Of a stretch of DNA of 64,000 bases, positions 23,031 to 34,214 are shown piece by piece. The stretch's first letter is position 1. Each line of letters opens with the position of its first letter. The stretch is taken from positions 3,258-67,257 of the forward strand of contig CALIUG010000072.1 of assembly GCA_938048755.1 (NCBI GenBank). The letters are read 5' to 3'. This DNA comes from an uncultured Alphaproteobacteria bacterium (GTDB lineage: Bacteria > Pseudomonadota > Alphaproteobacteria > SP197). The notes below the pieces were generated by a model that was given only the letters and a program-made list of their open reading frames with translations, did not search any database and had not been told where the DNA came from. A program made the translations under genes and the position numbers.

Positions 23031-23378
23031 GTGTTTGGCATGGCTGCGACAACAACAACCGCGCGGAAGAAGAAGGCAACGGCAAAGGCGGATGCAGGTC
23101 ATGCCTGCCTGCATCTTGATGCCGATGCGCGCAAGGACGCCAGGTTGCGCCTGCTTTCGGTACGCGGCCATGTCGAGGGCATTCTGCGCATGCTCGAAGA
23201 CGACAGCGTCTATTGCGTCGATGTCCTCAAGCAGATCAAGGCCGTCGATGGCGCGCTCGACAAGGTCGGCAACCTGATCCTGAAAGCCCATCTGCACGAC
23301 CATGTTGTCACGGCCGCCAAGCGCGGCGATGAGGAGGCGATCGTCGCCGAACTCATGGAAGTTCTGAAGTACCGATGA
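23031..23378 (+). CDS. csoR: copper-sensing transcriptional repressor, CsoR/RcnR/FrmR family
   Basis: 115 aa all-helical protein. The [38 protein letters not shown] core carries the Cys/His metal-site positions. ATGA-overlapped with copA. Confidence 0.8.
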
Positions 23379-25822
23379 CCCGGCATCTCGACTTCACGGT
23401 CGACGGCATGACCTGCGGCGGCTGTGTCGCCAAGGTCGAACGCACGCTGGCCAGGGTCGACGGCGTCGACAAGGCCGAGGTCAACCTTGCCACCCATCGC
23501 GCAACGGTGACGGCAGAGATCCTGCCCGACACCGCAGCCCTGCGTGCCACGATCGACAGTCTTGGATACAAAACGCCCACGGTCGAACGCGACTACACCA
23601 TCGATGGCATGACCTGCGGTGCCTGTGTCACGCGTGTTGAAACAGCGTTGCTGGCGGTGCCGGGCGTCACCCTGGCGGAAGTCAATCTTGCCACCCATCG
23701 CGCCCGGGTCACCGCACTTGCCGGTTCGCTCAGTGACGCCGCGATCATCGAAGCGGTCTCTGGAACCGGCTACGCCGCCCAGCCCGTCGGACAGACCGGG
23801 GATGAAGAAGACGATGGCGAAGCACGCCGTCAGGCCGCCCTGGCTGCTTTGCGCCGGCGTGTCGTGGTTGCAGCGGTTTTCACGGTTCCCCTCGTCATCC
23901 TCGCCATGGGGCGTCATATCGGTCCCATCGAGGCCTGGACCGCGGGGATCATGAGTCATCGCGGCTGGATGACCGTGGAACTTTTTCTGGCGCTTCCCGT
24001 GCAGATCTTTGCTGCGGGCCTGTTCTATCGTCTGGCCTGGCGCGAACTGCGTCATCTCGCGCCGGGCATGAACAGCCTGGTCGCGATCGGCACCACGGCC
24101 GCCTTCGGCTATTCACTGCTCGCCCTTTTGGCCCCTGATCTCTTTCCGGACGGCACGGCAAACTCCTATTTCGAGGCTGCCGCCGTCATCGTCACGCTCA
24201 TCCTGCTGGGCCGCCTGATGGAGGGTGCCGCCAAGGGCCGGACATCCGCAGCCATCCGCAAGCTGATGCAGCTCGCCCCACCCACGGCACGGGTGCGTCG
24301 TGACGGGGAAGACATCGAGGTTCCGGTCGCTGAAATCGTCGTGGGCGACGTGGTCGTTGTGCGTCCCGGTGAGCGGTTGCCGGTTGATGGCGACGTGCTG
24401 GAAGGCGCCAGCCATATCGACGAAGCTATGATCACCGGTGAGCCCATCCCCGTGGAGAAGGCCATGGGCGATGCCGTCACCGGCGGCACAGCCAACGGCA
24501 CCGGTGCATTGCTGGTCCGTGCGACGCGCGTGGGCGCAGATACCGTGCTTGCCCAGATCGTTGCCATGGTCGAGGAAGCCCAGGGCTCCAAACCGCCGAT
24601 CCAGCATATGGCCGACCGCATTGCCGGGGTCTTTGTGCCCATCGTCATGGTGCTGGCGGTCCTGACCTTTGCCGTTTGGATTGTCTTCGGGCCGCAACCG
24701 TCGCTTTCCTATGCCTTCGTCACGGCGGTTTCGGTCCTGCTTGTCGCCTGCCCCTGCGCCATGGGCCTTGCCACGCCCACAGCCGTCATGGTTGCCACGG
24801 GACGGGGTGCAGGCGCCGGAGTCCTGATCCGCCAGGGTGCGACGCTGGAACGCCTTGCAAAGGTCGACATGGCCGTGTTCGACAAAACAGGAACCCTGAC
24901 CCAGGGACGGCCCACGCTGACGGCCATAGAGACCGTCGCCGGTGGTGATGAACACCGGGCCCTGGCGCTCGCCGCTGCCCTGGAACGCCAGAGCGAACAC
25001 CCCATCGCGCTCGCCATTGTCGAAGCGGCGGGCGAACGCGGCCTGACGCTTGCCCAGGCACGCGACTTCGGCACCGAATCCGGCATGGGCGCGACCGCTG
25101 TGGTTGATGGCCACAGCGTCATGATCGGGGCCGGTCGTTACATGGCCGCCCACGGCATTGATACGTCGGAACTCGCCGCCGCCGCCGCCGACCATGCCGG
25201 ACGCGGCGCGACGCCGGTGTTCCTGGCTGTTGACGGCGAACTCTCGGCCTTCCTTGCGGTCTCAGATGCGGTCAAACCCGGCAGCGCCGCCGCGCTGGCC
25301 AGACTGGCAAAGATGGGTGTGAAAACCGCCATGCTGACCGGCGACAACACACGCACCGCACAGGCCGTTGCCACCGATCTCGGCATCGACCATGTGCTGG
25401 CCGAGGTTATGCCTGGGGACAAGGCTTCAGAAATCGCGCGCCTGCAGGCCGAGGGCGCCACGGTTGCCTTTGTCGGCGACGGGATCAACGATGCGCCCGC
25501 CCTTGCCGGTGCGGATGTCGGCATTGCCATCGGCACCGGCACCGATGTCGCGATCGAGGCCGGCGATGTCGTGCTTATGTCTGGCGATCCCGCCGGTGTG
25601 GCCAACGCGATTGCGCTTGGCCGTCGCACACTGACCACGATCAAGCAGAACTTTCTGTGGGCCTATCTCTATAACGTGTTGTTGATCCCCGTTGCCGCCG
25701 GTCTGCTCTACCCCTTCGCGGGCGTCCTGATGCACCCCATCTTTGCGGCGCTCGCCATGAGCATCTCCAGCGTCTTTGTCGTCACCAACTCCCTGCGCCT
25801 CAACCGCTTCCGCTTGGGCTGA
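23375..25822 (+). CDS. copA: copper-translocating P1B-type ATPase
   Basis: Two N-terminal HMA domains (GMTCGGC, GMTCGAC). CPC motif ([10 protein letters not shown]), [15 protein letters not shown]. 815 aa. Confidence 0.95.
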
Positions 25823-25869
25823 GGTGCCGGTGCCGAACGCGACGCCGCATGACGCCGATCTGCCCTGTT

Positions 25870-26090
25870 TGTCACGCAGAGACGCAGAGACGCAGAGAAA
25901 CAAACAAACTAACAAGAGTGGGCACACAGAGACACAGGGTCGGTTGATGCTTGATGGGATTGGTTCGATGAGCTTGTCTCAGTTGGGCCGCTGCGCGGCC
26001 CATTAATCTGTCCTAGTTCGAGGCCGCCATGACGCCCATTGGATATTGCTGGTCCTCTGTGGCTCTGTGGCTCTGTGTGACAAACCTTGT
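25870..26090. repeat. MITE-like element: about 30-bp terminal inverted repeats, each containing 3 tandem heptamers (cagagac/g), flanking about 150 bp with a strong internal hairpin
   Basis: Left end tgtcacgcagagacgcagagacgcagaga. Right end cctctgtggctctgtggctctgtgtgaca, which is its reverse complement with 3 mismatches. Internal gggccgctgcgcggccc hairpin followed by attaat, which may also terminate copA transcription. Confidence 0.7.
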
Positions 26091-26137
26091 TTCCTGGCAT
26101 GGGTGACACCCTGATTGCCGCGCGTTAAAACGCCGCC

Positions 26138-26638
26138 ATGCACGCGACAGAACACGACCTCATGGCCCGGCTCGATGCGCTGGGTATCGAGACCACCACC
26201 CATCGCCATCCCGCCGTCTTCACGGTGGAGGAGGCGCGCGCTCATTGCAGCCATCTGCCGGGCTGCCATTGCAAGAACCTGTTTCTCAAAGACAAGAAGG
26301 GTGCGTTGTGGCTGGTCGTGGCGCGGGACGATGCGCCGATTTCCATGAAACATCTCGACAAGCAGATCGGCTCGGCACGCCTTTCCTTCGGCAAGCCCGA
26401 TCTTCTGCTGGAGGTGCTGGGGGTCATTCCCGGCGCTGTCACGCCCTTTGCACTCATCAACGATGCCGAACAGCGCGTCAACGTGGTGCTGGATGCACAA
26501 ATGATGGCGGCGGATCTCGTCAACTACCATCCGCTCACCAACGAGGCGACGGTGGCGCTGACGCCCGATGCCCTGGTGACCTTCATCCGTGCCTGTGGCC
26601 ACGAGCCTGCAATTCTCGAGGTTGACGCTCCCGAATAG
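26138..26638 (+). CDS. YbaK/ProX-type aminoacyl-tRNA deacylase (prolyl-tRNA editing domain family)
   Basis: 166 aa with the YbaK/ProRS-associated domain pattern (HPAVFTVEE...CKNLFLKDKKG...GAVTPFALIN). Confidence 0.7.
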   Translation: MHATEHDLMARLDALGIETTTHRHPAVFTVEEARAHCSHLPGCHCKNLFLKDKKGALWLVVARDDAPISMKHLDKQIGSARLSFGKPDLLLEVLGVIPGAVTPFALINDAEQRVNVVLDAQMMAADLVNYHPLTNEATVALTPDALVTFIRACGHEPAILEVDAPE

Positions 26639-31072: not shown

Positions 31073-32680
31073 TCAATAACCCAGGGCGATACCGTCTTTT
31101 CGGGGTTCGGTGCCGCCGGCCAAGGTGCCCTGATCCCAGTCGATCCAGATGGCCTGTCCGCCGCCGAAGGCTTCGGGCGTGATGGCGACCCGGTGACCCC
31201 TGCGGGCGAGGTCGTGCATGACGTGCGGCGGTACCGAGGGTTCGACATAAACCGCGCCGCGTTCATGACAGAAGCGCGGCAGGTCCAGAGCCTGCTGCGG
31301 GTCCATGCCATAGAGCAGCATGTTCTGTAGGACATGGGTGTGGCCCCAGGGCTGGTAGTCGCCGCCCATCACGCCGAACGGCATGATCGCGCGTTCGCCC
31401 CGGGTCAGCATCGCCGGGATGATGGTGTGCATGGGCCGCTTGCCGGGCTCGATGTTGTTGCGATGGCCTGGCTCGATGACAAAGCCGCAGCCGCGGTTCT
31501 GCAGCACGACGCCGGACTTCGGTGCAACCCGCGCCGAACCGAAGGAGAAGTAGGTCGAGTTGATGAAGCTGGCCGCATTGCGGTCCTTGTCGACCACGGT
31601 CAGGTAGACGGTGTTGGGTGTGCTGGGCAGGCTGGGGCCCGGCACGTTTTTCATGGCGCGATGCGGGTCGATATCGGCGCGCAGCATGTCGGCATAGTGA
31701 TCCGACAGCAGGGTATCGACGGGAATGTCGGCCATGGCCGGATCGGCGACATATTCGGCACGGTCGCGGAAGGCCAGGCGTCCGGCCTCGATCGTGAGGT
31801 GCAGGCGATCGGCCGAAAGCGGGTCCATCGATCCGATGTCGTAACCTTTCAGGATGTTCATCATGATCAGCGCCACGATGCCCTGGCCGTTGGGCGGGCA
31901 TTCATGGACGCGATAGCCGTTCATCTCGGTCGAGATGGGATCGACATATTCGCCGGCTGCTGCGGCAAAATCGTCAAGCGTATGCAGGCCACCCAACTCG
32001 TTGAGGTAGCCGACAATGTCTTCGGCAACCCAACCCGTGTAGAACCCGTCGCGTCCCTTGGCCGCGACCGCTTCCATGGTCTTGGCGAGCAGCGGTTGCG
32101 TGTGTTTGGAACCCAGGCTGGGTGCATGTCCGCCGACCAGCAGGATGTTCTTGGCGTTGGCGTCGCCGGAAAGGCGTTCCTCGGCATCGACCCAGGATTC
32201 ATGGACGACCGGGGCAATGGTGTAACCCTCAGCAGCGTGATGGATCGCCAGGCGCAGCACCTCGCCGATCTCCATATTGCCGTGGTCCTCGACCAGGCGG
32301 CACCAGGCATCAATGGTGCCCGGCACCGTGACCGCATGGGGGCTTTCGGTCTCGAACGACGTGATGCCGTTTTCCAGAAACCATTCGGCTTTGGCGGCAC
32401 CCGGTGCACGGCCCGAGCCGTTATAGGCAATGACGTTGGATGTCCCCTTGGGTGCGTAGAGACAGAAGACATCGCCTCCCACACCGGTCGACATCGGTTC
32501 GACCACGGCCAGCGTCGCGGCGGCGGCAACCGCGGCATCCATGGCATTGCCGCCTGCGCGCAGAATATCGATGGCGGTCATCGACGCAGCAGGATGCGAC
32601 GTGCAGGCCATGCCGTGTTCGGCATAGGCGGTGGAACGGGGCGGGGAATAGCTGTTGCGCATCGGTCTGGATCTCGCCAT
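31073..32680 (-). CDS. ggt: gamma-glutamyltransferase
   Basis: GGT family throughout (TSHPAAS...GGNAMDAAVAAAATLAVVEP, catalytic Thr context TTHxS). Start taken at MARSRPMRN (32680). The first 49 codons of the track ORF translate a repeat element. Confidence 0.85.
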   Translation of the reverse strand: MARSRPMRNSYSPPRSTAYAEHGMACTSHPAASMTAIDILRAGGNAMDAAVAAAATLAVVEPMSTGVGGDVFCLYAPKGTSNVIAYNGSGRAPGAAKAEWFLENGITSFETESPHAVTVPGTIDAWCRLVEDHGNMEIGEVLRLAIHHAAEGYTIAPVVHESWVDAEERLSGDANAKNILLVGGHAPSLGSKHTQPLLAKTMEAVAAKGRDGFYTGWVAEDIVGYLNELGGLHTLDDFAAAAGEYVDPISTEMNGYRVHECPPNGQGIVALIMMNILKGYDIGSMDPLSADRLHLTIEAGRLAFRDRAEYVADPAMADIPVDTLLSDHYADMLRADIDPHRAMKNVPGPSLPSTPNTVYLTVVDKDRNAASFINSTYFSFGSARVAPKSGVVLQNRGCGFVIEPGHRNNIEPGKRPMHTIIPAMLTRGERAIMPFGVMGGDYQPWGHTHVLQNMLLYGMDPQQALDLPRFCHERGAVYVEPSVPPHVMHDLARRGHRVAITPEAFGGGQAIWIDWDQGTLAGGTEPRKDGIALGY

Positions 32681-32794: not shown

Positions 32795-32978
32795 TTCACG
32801 CGGAGACGCGGAGAACGCGGAGTTCATGGCATGATCACAGCAGGATCGTGTTGCCTGGCATTTCTGCCGCGTTCACGCGGCATCCAGAACACGGCCAGAT
32901 CGACTGCAACGATGCCGGGAAGTTCGGTAGCCTTTCGGAACGCTCACACCTCCGCGCCCTCCGCGTCTCCGCGTGAGA
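32795..32978. repeat. second copy of the MITE-like element family whose terminal inverted repeats contain triple heptamers
   Basis: gttcacgcggagacgcggagaacgcggag at 32797-32825. Its inverse ctccgcgccctccgcgtctccgcgtga at 32948-32975. Same architecture as 25870-26090 (TCACGCrGAGACGCrGAGAaCGCrGAG). Confidence 0.65.
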
Positions 32979-33077
32979 AATCCTGTTCCTTCGCGCGCTC
33001 CGCTGATGGAGGACTGCGTTACTTGACGCTGAACCACCCGCAGCCCCAAGCTGGCGGTTCTTCAAGGAGTAGAGCCT

Positions 33078-34214
33078 ATGTCCGAGGGATTGGCGCGTGT
33101 GCGCGCGGCGTTGACGTCTGCCGAACAAAGCAGTCATGACGCGGGCTGGACCATGCCGTCGGCGTTTTACACCGACCCCGACTTTCATGCGCTCGAGCTT
33201 GAGCACTTGTTTGCCCGGGAGTGGCATTGTGTCGGGCGTGTCGAGGAAATCGCCAAACCCGGCCAGTGGTTTCCCTATCGTTTGCTCAACGAGCCGCTTG
33301 TCATCACCCATGCTCCCGATGGGACGATCCGCGCGTTGTCCAATGTCTGCCGCCATCGCGGCACGCTGATCGCGACCGACAAGGGCAAGGGCCGGCGTCT
33401 GCTCTGCCCCTATCATCACTGGGCCTATGACCTGACCGGCCAGCTGAAGGCAGCACCCAAGATCGAGGAGCGTCCGGGCTTCACGGTCAAGGACTGCAAG
33501 CTGCCAAGCTTCCCCTGCGAGGTCTGGTTGGGGTTCATCTATGTGAGCCTTGATCAGCAGGCCAAACCCTTTGCGCCCCAGGTTGCCGATCTCGAAGCCA
33601 TGATCGGGCCCTATCACATGGAGGACATGTGGCTGGGTTACACCGGCGAGGCGGTCTGGGAGACCAACTGGAAATCCATGATCGAGAATTACATGGAGGG
33701 TTATCACTTGAGCCCGCTCCACAAGACCGGTCTTGCCAATCTCAACCCGACCGACATGTGTGAACATCTCGAGCCCCAGGAGAACTGGTTCGGTTACTCC
33801 GTCGGCTTCCCCGAAGATCTGCCGCGTGTGACGTCGGGCGATCCCAGTCTCACGAAACACCAGTCCAATACCTGCATCATGGCCATGATCCATCCCGGCA
33901 ATGGCATCGGGCTTGCGGCCGATTACAGCTCCTATCTCTGCATCCAGCCCGAAGGCACCGACAAGGTGCGTTACAAGGCAGGCATCCTGTTCTGGGGTGA
34001 TGACTGGCCGCAATCGGTGGTCGACCGCGCGGTTGAGCTGTTCCATCAAACCATGGAGGAGGACCGCTCGGTGCTGGAACCCATGATGATGGGTTACCAG
34101 TCGGCGCACCACGCGCCTGGTCCCATCGCGCCGCCACCTCTGGAAGGCACGATCCTCGATCTTGCCAAGTATGCTGCGCGCCGCCTGGGCCCCGTGATCG
34201 ACGCAACGGCCTGA
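33078..34214 (+). CDS. Rieske [2Fe-2S] non-heme-iron oxygenase, alpha-subunit-like (GbcA, CntA or Stc2-type oxygenase/demethylase)
   Basis: Rieske motif CRHRG...CPYHHW. C-terminal mononuclear-iron domain (EGYHLSPLH). 378 aa. Confidence 0.8.
   Translation: MSEGLARVRAALTSAEQSSHDAGWTMPSAFYTDPDFHALELEHLFAREWHCVGRVEEIAKPGQWFPYRLLNEPLVITHAPDGTIRALSNVCRHRGTLIATDKGKGRRLLCPYHHWAYDLTGQLKAAPKIEERPGFTVKDCKLPSFPCEVWLGFIYVSLDQQAKPFAPQVADLEAMIGPYHMEDMWLGYTGEAVWETNWKSMIENYMEGYHLSPLHKTGLANLNPTDMCEHLEPQENWFGYSVGFPEDLPRVTSGDPSLTKHQSNTCIMAMIHPGNGIGLAADYSSYLCIQPEGTDKVRYKAGILFWGDDWPQSVVDRAVELFHQTMEEDRSVLEPMMMGYQSAHHAPGPIAPPPLEGTILDLAKYAARRLGPVIDATA

Follow-up and report, generated by a model that had tools for sequence, protein, structure and literature searches.

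Inverted octamer arrays between genes as gene-less members of a repeat class associated with GxxExxY proteins

Two intergenic elements in a 64-kb window (the whole stretch of alphaproteobacterial DNA that was analysed) are well supported as gene-less members of a class of octamer arrays that is associated with genes for GxxExxY proteins. In both loci the module is an inverted pair of arms whose TCA ends point outward, each arm being made of TCA followed by three CRCNRAG-N units. Our best reading, to which we give an even chance, is that the two loci are non-autonomous, REPIN-like palindromic DNA partnered with a GxxExxY nuclease, with binding, cleavage and mobilisation as the steps that we infer from the analysis.

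Results

Anatomy of the two elements

Locus 1 lies between copA (23375-25822, + strand) and ybaK (26138-26638, + strand; YbaK-type tRNA-editing) and starts 47 nt after the copA stop. Its left arm A1 (25870-25898, + strand) is TG-TCA followed by three CGCAGAG units with the spacer A and a period of 8, which can be written as TGTC(ACGCAGAG)x3. The right arm A3 (26054-26082, - strand) reads CCTCTGTGG CTCTGTGG CTCTGTGTGACA; its reverse complement, TGTC ACACAGAG CCACAGAG CCACAGAG, is again TG-TCA with three units, now CACAGAG, separated by C and closed by a G. The ends of the locus begin TG...CA, and the extended inverted repeat covers 36 nt on each side (25867-25902 and 26050-26085), is 81% complementary and leaves 147 nt between its halves. 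The arm pairs quoted in the original prediction are present in the sequence here and at locus 2, as is the perfect GC hairpin inside locus 1 (GGGCCGC and GCGGCCC around TGC; 25985-26001, no strand assigned), which is directly followed by ATTAAT (ATTAATCTG) without a T-run. A third array, A2 (25923-25939, + strand), had been missed; it consists of CA and two units, CACAGAG and CACAGGG, separated by A. A2 has the orientation of A1 and the CACAGAG flavour of A3, and the AACAAG that flanks it is the complement of the CTTGTT on the right side of A3. From this common flavour and the complementary flanks, locus 1 may be a CACAGAG pair (A2/A3) plus an additional CGCAGAG arm (A1). Immediately after the left arm there is an (AAAC)3 run, GAAACAAACAAACTAAC, at 25899-25913.

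The surroundings of locus 1 contain degenerate copies of the neighbouring genes. The final 21 nt of copA, together with its stop codon, recur as a degenerate copy (AACCTTGTTTCCTGGCATGGGTGA; 26083-26106, + strand) that abuts A3 and was equalled in 0 of 2000 shuffles, the functional copy being 25802-25822. A motif resembling the start of ybaK (CGACGCCGCATGACGCCGAT; 25840-25859, + strand) is found twice more, at 26019-26039 and where ybaK truly starts (26127-26145). Homologues of the YbaK protein come from MAGs labelled Rhodospirillaceae or Rhodospirillales, which makes an uncultured member of this order the most likely source of the window.

The neighbours of locus 2 are a gamma-glutamyltranspeptidase (GGT) gene on the - strand and a Rieske oxygenase gene (33078-34214, + strand). 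Comparison with a relative puts the true start of the GGT gene at 32680, which together with the divergent Rieske gene places the element in a divergent promoter region. The left arm (32795-32822, + strand) is T-TCA with three CGCGGAG units separated by A and AA; the right arm (32950-32976, - strand) has as its reverse complement TCA with three CGCGGAG units separated by A and GG. Both arms are thus of the CGCGGAG flavour, and over 27 nt (32796-32822 and 32950-32976, with 127 nt between) they are 93% complementary, so that the second copy of the architecture that had been predicted here is real. The interior (32823-32949, no strand assigned) is unique sequence without a protein-family match. 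A possible degenerate extra arm (CCTTCGCGCGCTCCGCTGA; 32988-33006, - strand) is found 12 nt right of the right arm. Both elements fold as long hairpins on either strand, with z-scores of -3.2 and -2.7 for locus 1 and of -6.2 and -6.4 for locus 2.

The arms had been described as tandem heptamers. Tandem Repeats Finder gave a period of 8 (one of 9) with about three copies for all four arms, which makes the units octamers, and all four follow TC(A) plus about three units C-R-Y-N-R-A-G at a period of 8-9. A degenerate arm pattern, TCACRCRGAGMCRCRGAG, searched with up to two mismatches, has six matches in the window vs 0.19 expected, and 0 of 100 shuffles reached six. This bears out the earlier view of a repeat family that is conserved in pattern rather than in sequence. 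The interiors of the two loci could not be aligned (scores 15 and 17 vs a shuffle mean of 15), and no resemblance was found between them and the rest of the window or the intergenic DNA of relatives. Neither had a protein-family match or, by tblastn with five GxxExxY proteins even at E = 10, a gene remnant; the same search found no GxxExxY homologue anywhere in the 64-kb window. In Rfam searches of the window and 16 GxxExxY loci, all matches stayed below the gathering thresholds and were miRNA-precursor look-alikes only. Elsewhere in the window, 318-870 is a tandem repeat with a 197-bp unit (2.8 copies, 83% matches), presumably the first MITE-like family of the original prediction.

Presence, absence and insertion signature

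A syntenic relative is represented by two contigs, L221 and L222 (YbaK identity 88%). L221 (16.9 kb) extends from copA-ybaK through the GGT and Rieske genes with the gene order of the window, and L222 (2.3 kb) covers copA-ybaK only. The copA-ybaK gap is 31 nt in both contigs vs 315 nt in the window, the GGT-Rieske gap is 144 nt in L221 vs 397 nt in the window, and there were no arrays at the sites covered by these contigs. As the elements are absent at the same sites in the relative, they were recently gained here or lost there. Other relatives (L211 and L212-L219) have phyH (PF05721) between copA and ybaK, either intact or as a decaying relic, and no arrays there; phyH has been lost from the window lineage and from L221. 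The internal GC hairpin had been thought to double as the copA terminator. This proposal did not hold up: no T-run follows the hairpin, a terminator scan of 25700-26300 was empty and the whole element is absent after copA in the syntenic relatives. In two near-identical sequences from two other samples (L001/L002) the locus 1 element is present, and its array A2 has four units vs two in the window. The difference is a 16-bp indel, which we read as unit slippage.

The original prediction had called for a check of target-site duplications. Over 98 elements no short duplication (3-6 bp, at any offset) was found beyond expectation, and the inverted repeat fades 1-2 nt outside the TCA. The two flanks of locus 1, 25802-25866 on the left and 26083-26150 on the right, are similar to each other (z 4.7; 3 of 3000 shuffles). 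This flank duplication of about 65 nt covers the copA 3' end, the intergenic spacer and the ybaK start, with a third ybaK-start motif inside the element at 26019-26039. Insertion at this site would thus have been accompanied by a long, degenerate target duplication of 21-24 nt, possibly of about 65 nt. As a general signature of the class a long flanking duplication was rejected, since only one of 52 elements lay above the 99th percentile of the control. Apparent insertions in L237 turned out to be scaffold N-gaps.

Distribution of the arrays across phyla

The family had been thought old, and a pattern search for further copies had been suggested. The search was fruitful and gave a module found in many phyla instead of an old family specific to one lineage: the exact 18-mer TCACGCRGAGACGCRGAG matches at least 120 stretches in one-genome-per-species contigs, from about ten phyla by record title, as well as 79 viral contigs. 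Among the matches listed, the titles name Acidobacteriota, Gemmatimonadota, Cyanobacteria (with Nostoc and Anabaena genomes among the carriers), Planctomycetota, Verrucomicrobiota, Chloroflexota, Armatimonadota and Spirochaetes, and several proteobacterial orders. Other unit flavours of the same design occur beside the 18-mer arrays, such as CGCAAAG, CGCCAAG, CACAGAGG and CGCGAAG. Among the listed loci an array is very often accompanied by its own reverse complement 10-250 nt away. Over the whole class the arms lie between about 10 and about 450 nt apart, and the spacing falls into a short-loop class, a class of about 75-175 nt and a gene-bearing class of about 375-450 nt; Sphingomonadales copies have interiors of 100-230 nt, similar to those in the window. 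Paired arms co-vary, with an identity at variable positions of 0.70 vs 0.46 when the arms were re-paired (best of 2000 shuffles 0.565). Arms are also found head-to-head, tail-to-tail and in tandem. The original prediction had foreseen independent simple-sequence expansions if the two loci could not be aligned beyond the repeats and had no further copies; the interiors are indeed unalignable beyond the arms, but further copies are many.

Two likenesses were considered and rejected as identities. The resemblance to a half parS site (GTTTCAC...GTGAAAC) we regard as a coincidence, the TTT being present in a minority of copies only, and CGTC-tagged REPs differ in architecture. In two genomes of Sphingomonadales type (L117 and L121) an array or hairpin stands directly upstream of a gene starting MI(V/I)LGLDPGLG, which from its N-terminus we take to be ruvC; the site may be orthologous in the two or a preferred one.

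Association with GxxExxY genes

To find genes that recur beside the arrays, the open reading frames of the roughly 120 listed 18-mer loci were clustered all-against-all. The sole cluster abutting arrays was a protein of about 125 aa, at five loci: by record title, two in Verrucomicrobia (L025, L058) and one each in Acidobacteria (L051) and Cyanobacteria (L067), the title of the fifth (L113) not being displayed. HMM scans identified the L051 and L025 proteins as TIGR04256 'GxxExxY protein' (E = 2e-43 and 1.9e-44), and the L051 protein also as PF13366 PDDEXK_3 (E = 4e-41); for L058, L067 and L113 the assignment to the family comes from BLAST clustering and multiple alignment. No other recurrent cargo genes were found between arm pairs, and no transposase gene recurred beside the arrays at the roughly 120 listed loci, where no DDE transposase partner was seen. 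Gene-bearing cases are about 5 among about 138 arms; gene-less elements are in excess by about 20:1, many with loops of 10-30 nt. In 774 kb of viral contigs we counted 322 arrays and no GxxExxY gene.

A second sample was drawn independently of the arrays: the best 80 of 595 metagenomic GxxExxY relatives, which are the closest relatives of one query rather than a family-wide set. Among these best 80 of 595, an array lies within 150 nt of the gene in 75 and on both sides in 50, and close to the gene there are 7.09 arrays per kb vs 0.23 per kb at distances above 300 nt, a 31-fold difference. The 193 arrays beside metagenomic GxxExxY genes, none of them selected through a TCAC pattern, follow the rules of the window arms. 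Exactly three units are present in 72% and the unit spacing is 8 in 83% of the spacings; among the 186 of the 193 with 8 nt of upstream sequence, the first unit comes after TC in 87% and after TCA in 56%. Around the gene (G) the arrays are arranged as +G- (11 cases), -G+ (6), +-G+- (4) and in other ways, from which the basic unit is a '+ -' hairpin; the gene lies either within the hairpin loop or flanked by two hairpins. Arms flanking a gene usually lie 5-45 nt from the open reading frame, and in +G- cases they provide its upstream sequence.

The association extends to plasmids, for which tblastn gave eight GxxExxY records, four to five of them with like flanks. In Bacteroides finegoldii, where the gene sits between radA and the next gene, TTCAC-CACAGAGG-ACGCAGAGG-ACACGGAGG and the inverse of this sequence enclose it. 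The Sphingomonas parapaucimobilis gene has fabD and fabG as neighbours, and TCACGCGAAGGCGCGAGGACGCGAAG directly adjoins its ATG. The GxxExxY genes of Gemmatirosa and Bernardetia have the same array design. More distant GxxExxY genes (36-40% identity; Treponema, Fusobacteria, Prevotella) are flanked by a single-unit inverted repeat or by direct repeats of about 50 nt. GxxExxY open reading frames often continue into the downstream array, as in L124 (392-820), L113 and L025, and the spurious C-terminal tail ...ASSRLRVN, for example, is the translation of GCGTCTTCGCGCCTTCGCGTGAAC and an annotation artefact.

One cassette is itself part of a larger repeat. A unit of 2,262 bp (L225 704-2965; also L223-L232) recurs with at least 99.9% identity on ten short contigs, which come from different metagenomes and all differ in their flanks, and a homologous unit of this 2.26-kb repeat occurs in L233-L242. 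It holds a 538-aa open reading frame, for which no significant Pfam or NCBIfam match was found (HTH_12 sub-threshold, E 0.007), and then an array-flanked GxxExxY gene, and has YTAG at either end. The unit has the look of an IS-like element whose target duplication is 4 bp long and which has the cassette in its interior.

The GxxExxY protein

The 125-aa protein has a conserved D...ExK, with D65, E75 and K77 invariant in the multiple alignment. A sequence search of the PDB with GxxExxY found no relative. An AF2 model (pLDDT 75.6) gave weak Foldseek matches, the best at E = 0.03, the top ones being mostly restriction-endonuclease-like, Cas4, exonuclease, splicing-endonuclease or Hjc folds. The protein has a predicted PD-(D/E)XK nuclease fold. 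The family comprises 29,089 clusters at 50% identity (E <= 0.001); the literature entries found list its function as unknown and record multiple copies and multiple horizontal transfers. Several representatives (P0241, P0246-P0248 and others) are 265-295 aa long with two full profile matches, and are tandem-duplicated or fused.

Discussion

The original prediction had suggested that the repeats are possibly bound by a repeat-recognising protein. This is a reasonable idea, for which the GxxExxY nuclease, whose genes are bracketed by like arrays, is now a candidate. The GxxExxY cassettes share their arms with the gene-less elements, the protein being a candidate partner and not a demonstrated transposase. 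In the reading that we prefer, the arms of the window loci would be sites recognised by a GxxExxY nuclease whose gene lies in another part of the genome. The nuclease would cut at or near the TCA tag, and the hairpin-forming DNA would be mobilised or maintained in trans without short target duplications, much as has been proposed for the movement of REPINs by RAYTs.

The REP/REPIN-RAYT systems are similar in that the repeats are short, intergenic and mostly inverted hairpin doublets (Bertels & Rainey 2011, PMC3116915; Di Nocera 2013, PMC3733652). They likewise have many gene-less copies per gene, a small nuclease gene that is flanked by the repeats and no target-site duplication (PMC3116915, PMC3733652). 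That nearly every sampled GxxExxY gene has arrays and most arrays have no gene is the REPIN/RAYT pattern and favours mobilisation or maintenance in trans; the inverted doublets, the lack of target duplication, the occurrence in any type of intergenic position and the presence/absence in relatives fit the same pattern. The differences lie in the parts. REPs are palindromes of 20-40 bp with a GTAG or CGTC tag, and RAYT is an HUH tyrosine transposase (PMC3733652), whereas the arm here is three tandem octamers after a TCA tag, with no GTAG/CGTC-tagged palindrome, and the recurrent neighbour is a PD-(D/E)XK protein. Moreover GxxExxY genes, unlike those of the REP/REPIN-RAYT systems, are multi-copy and recorded as horizontally transferred, and near-identical arms occur across phyla. 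Some observations count against the preferred reading. No GxxExxY gene was found in the 64-kb window, and the flanks of the more distant GxxExxY genes are of other kinds. The mixed topology around the gene is unlike the simple terminal inverted repeats of a transposon, the presence/absence at the window loci could come from loss in the relative, and the cassette inside the YTAG-bounded 2.26-kb repeat implies that spread there need not depend on the arrays.

It is rather unlikely that the array hairpins are independent, selfish or host-made, and that the GxxExxY genes home into or beside them as secondary passengers. The many arrays without a nearby GxxExxY gene would agree with this, as would the finding of the gene within a hairpin (+G-) in some cases and with a complete hairpin on either side (+-G+-) in others, and PD-(D/E)XK proteins include homing-type nucleases (Steczkiewicz 2012). 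However, the agent that copies the hairpins would be left unexplained, and arms that sit so tightly on the open reading frame and supply its upstream sequence look co-inherited with the gene. There is a smaller chance that the window elements are scars of GxxExxY cassettes from which the gene was deleted between the arms. Gene-bearing cassettes obey exactly the same arm rules and the inter-arm spacing falls into classes, but neither interior retains a GxxExxY remnant, and the excess of gene-less elements, many with very short loops, also counts against this origin.

A classical MITE, that is a deletion derivative of an IS with a DDE transposase and with subterminal tandem binding sites in its terminal inverted repeats, is very improbable. 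Like MITEs such as Correia elements and Nezha, the elements are small, non-coding and intergenic with terminal inverted repeats, locus 1 even having TG...CA ends, and to this extent the original label of MITE-like stands; the rest of the label is not supported, as in contrast to MITEs no target duplication, conserved interior or DDE partner was found, and the same arms recur head-to-head, tail-to-tail and in tandem. Equally remote is a purely local origin, whether by independent simple-sequence expansions or as a locus-specific palindrome that would regulate copA and the GGT/Rieske pair or terminate their transcripts: the unit number is unstable and locus 1 follows copA closely, but the TCA and three-unit rules and the exact 18-mers recur in many phyla, the elements are absent at the orthologous sites of relatives, no terminator-like site was found and at locus 2, between divergent genes, a terminator would be senseless.

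Two further kinds of sequence deserve comparison. The short tandemly repeated repetitive (STRR) sequences of cyanobacteria, reportedly described by Mazel and colleagues in 1990, are heptamers. As here, very short units are repeated in tandem between genes, and Nostoc and Anabaena carry the present arrays too. STRR sequences have a period of 7, other sequences and no fixed count of three units, and to our knowledge they lack a TCA tag, a pairing of inverted arms and an association with a gene. Intervening sequences of 23S rRNA that contain an open reading frame have it as a small frame in the loop of a long inverted-repeat stem. The window elements, in contrast, lie outside rRNA, and with G-U-type mismatches that have no strand bias (9 vs 6; 13 vs 14; low power) there is no sign of stem selection at the RNA level.

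The reading of the window loci as non-autonomous partners of a GxxExxY nuclease can be widened to the family. GxxExxY proteins could be the dedicated nucleases of a new cross-phylum class of mobile DNA, TCA + 3 x CRCNRAG-N palindromes that work like REPIN/RAYT on a PD-(D/E)XK fold, with the window elements as non-autonomous members; this we propose tentatively, as less likely than not. In the literature covered, which is incomplete so that a prior description is possible, neither the arm sequences nor the association of arrays with GxxExxY was found described. The kind of element, dispersed palindromic repeats with a dedicated nuclease gene, is known; what appears to be new is the design of the arm and the family to which the nuclease belongs.

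The fixed design of three units of 8 nt suggests a specific mode of protein-DNA recognition. For annotation, the array module is better regarded as a marker of recent intergenic gain or loss than as a terminator or operator. If our proposal were correct, a common and puzzling intergenic repeat would be explained, along with the spurious C-terminal extensions of GxxExxY open reading frames such as those in L124, L113 and L025. A new type of nuclease would join the few enzymes known to propagate palindromic repeats, and the very large GxxExxY family would gain its first testable function together with a defined nucleic-acid substrate.
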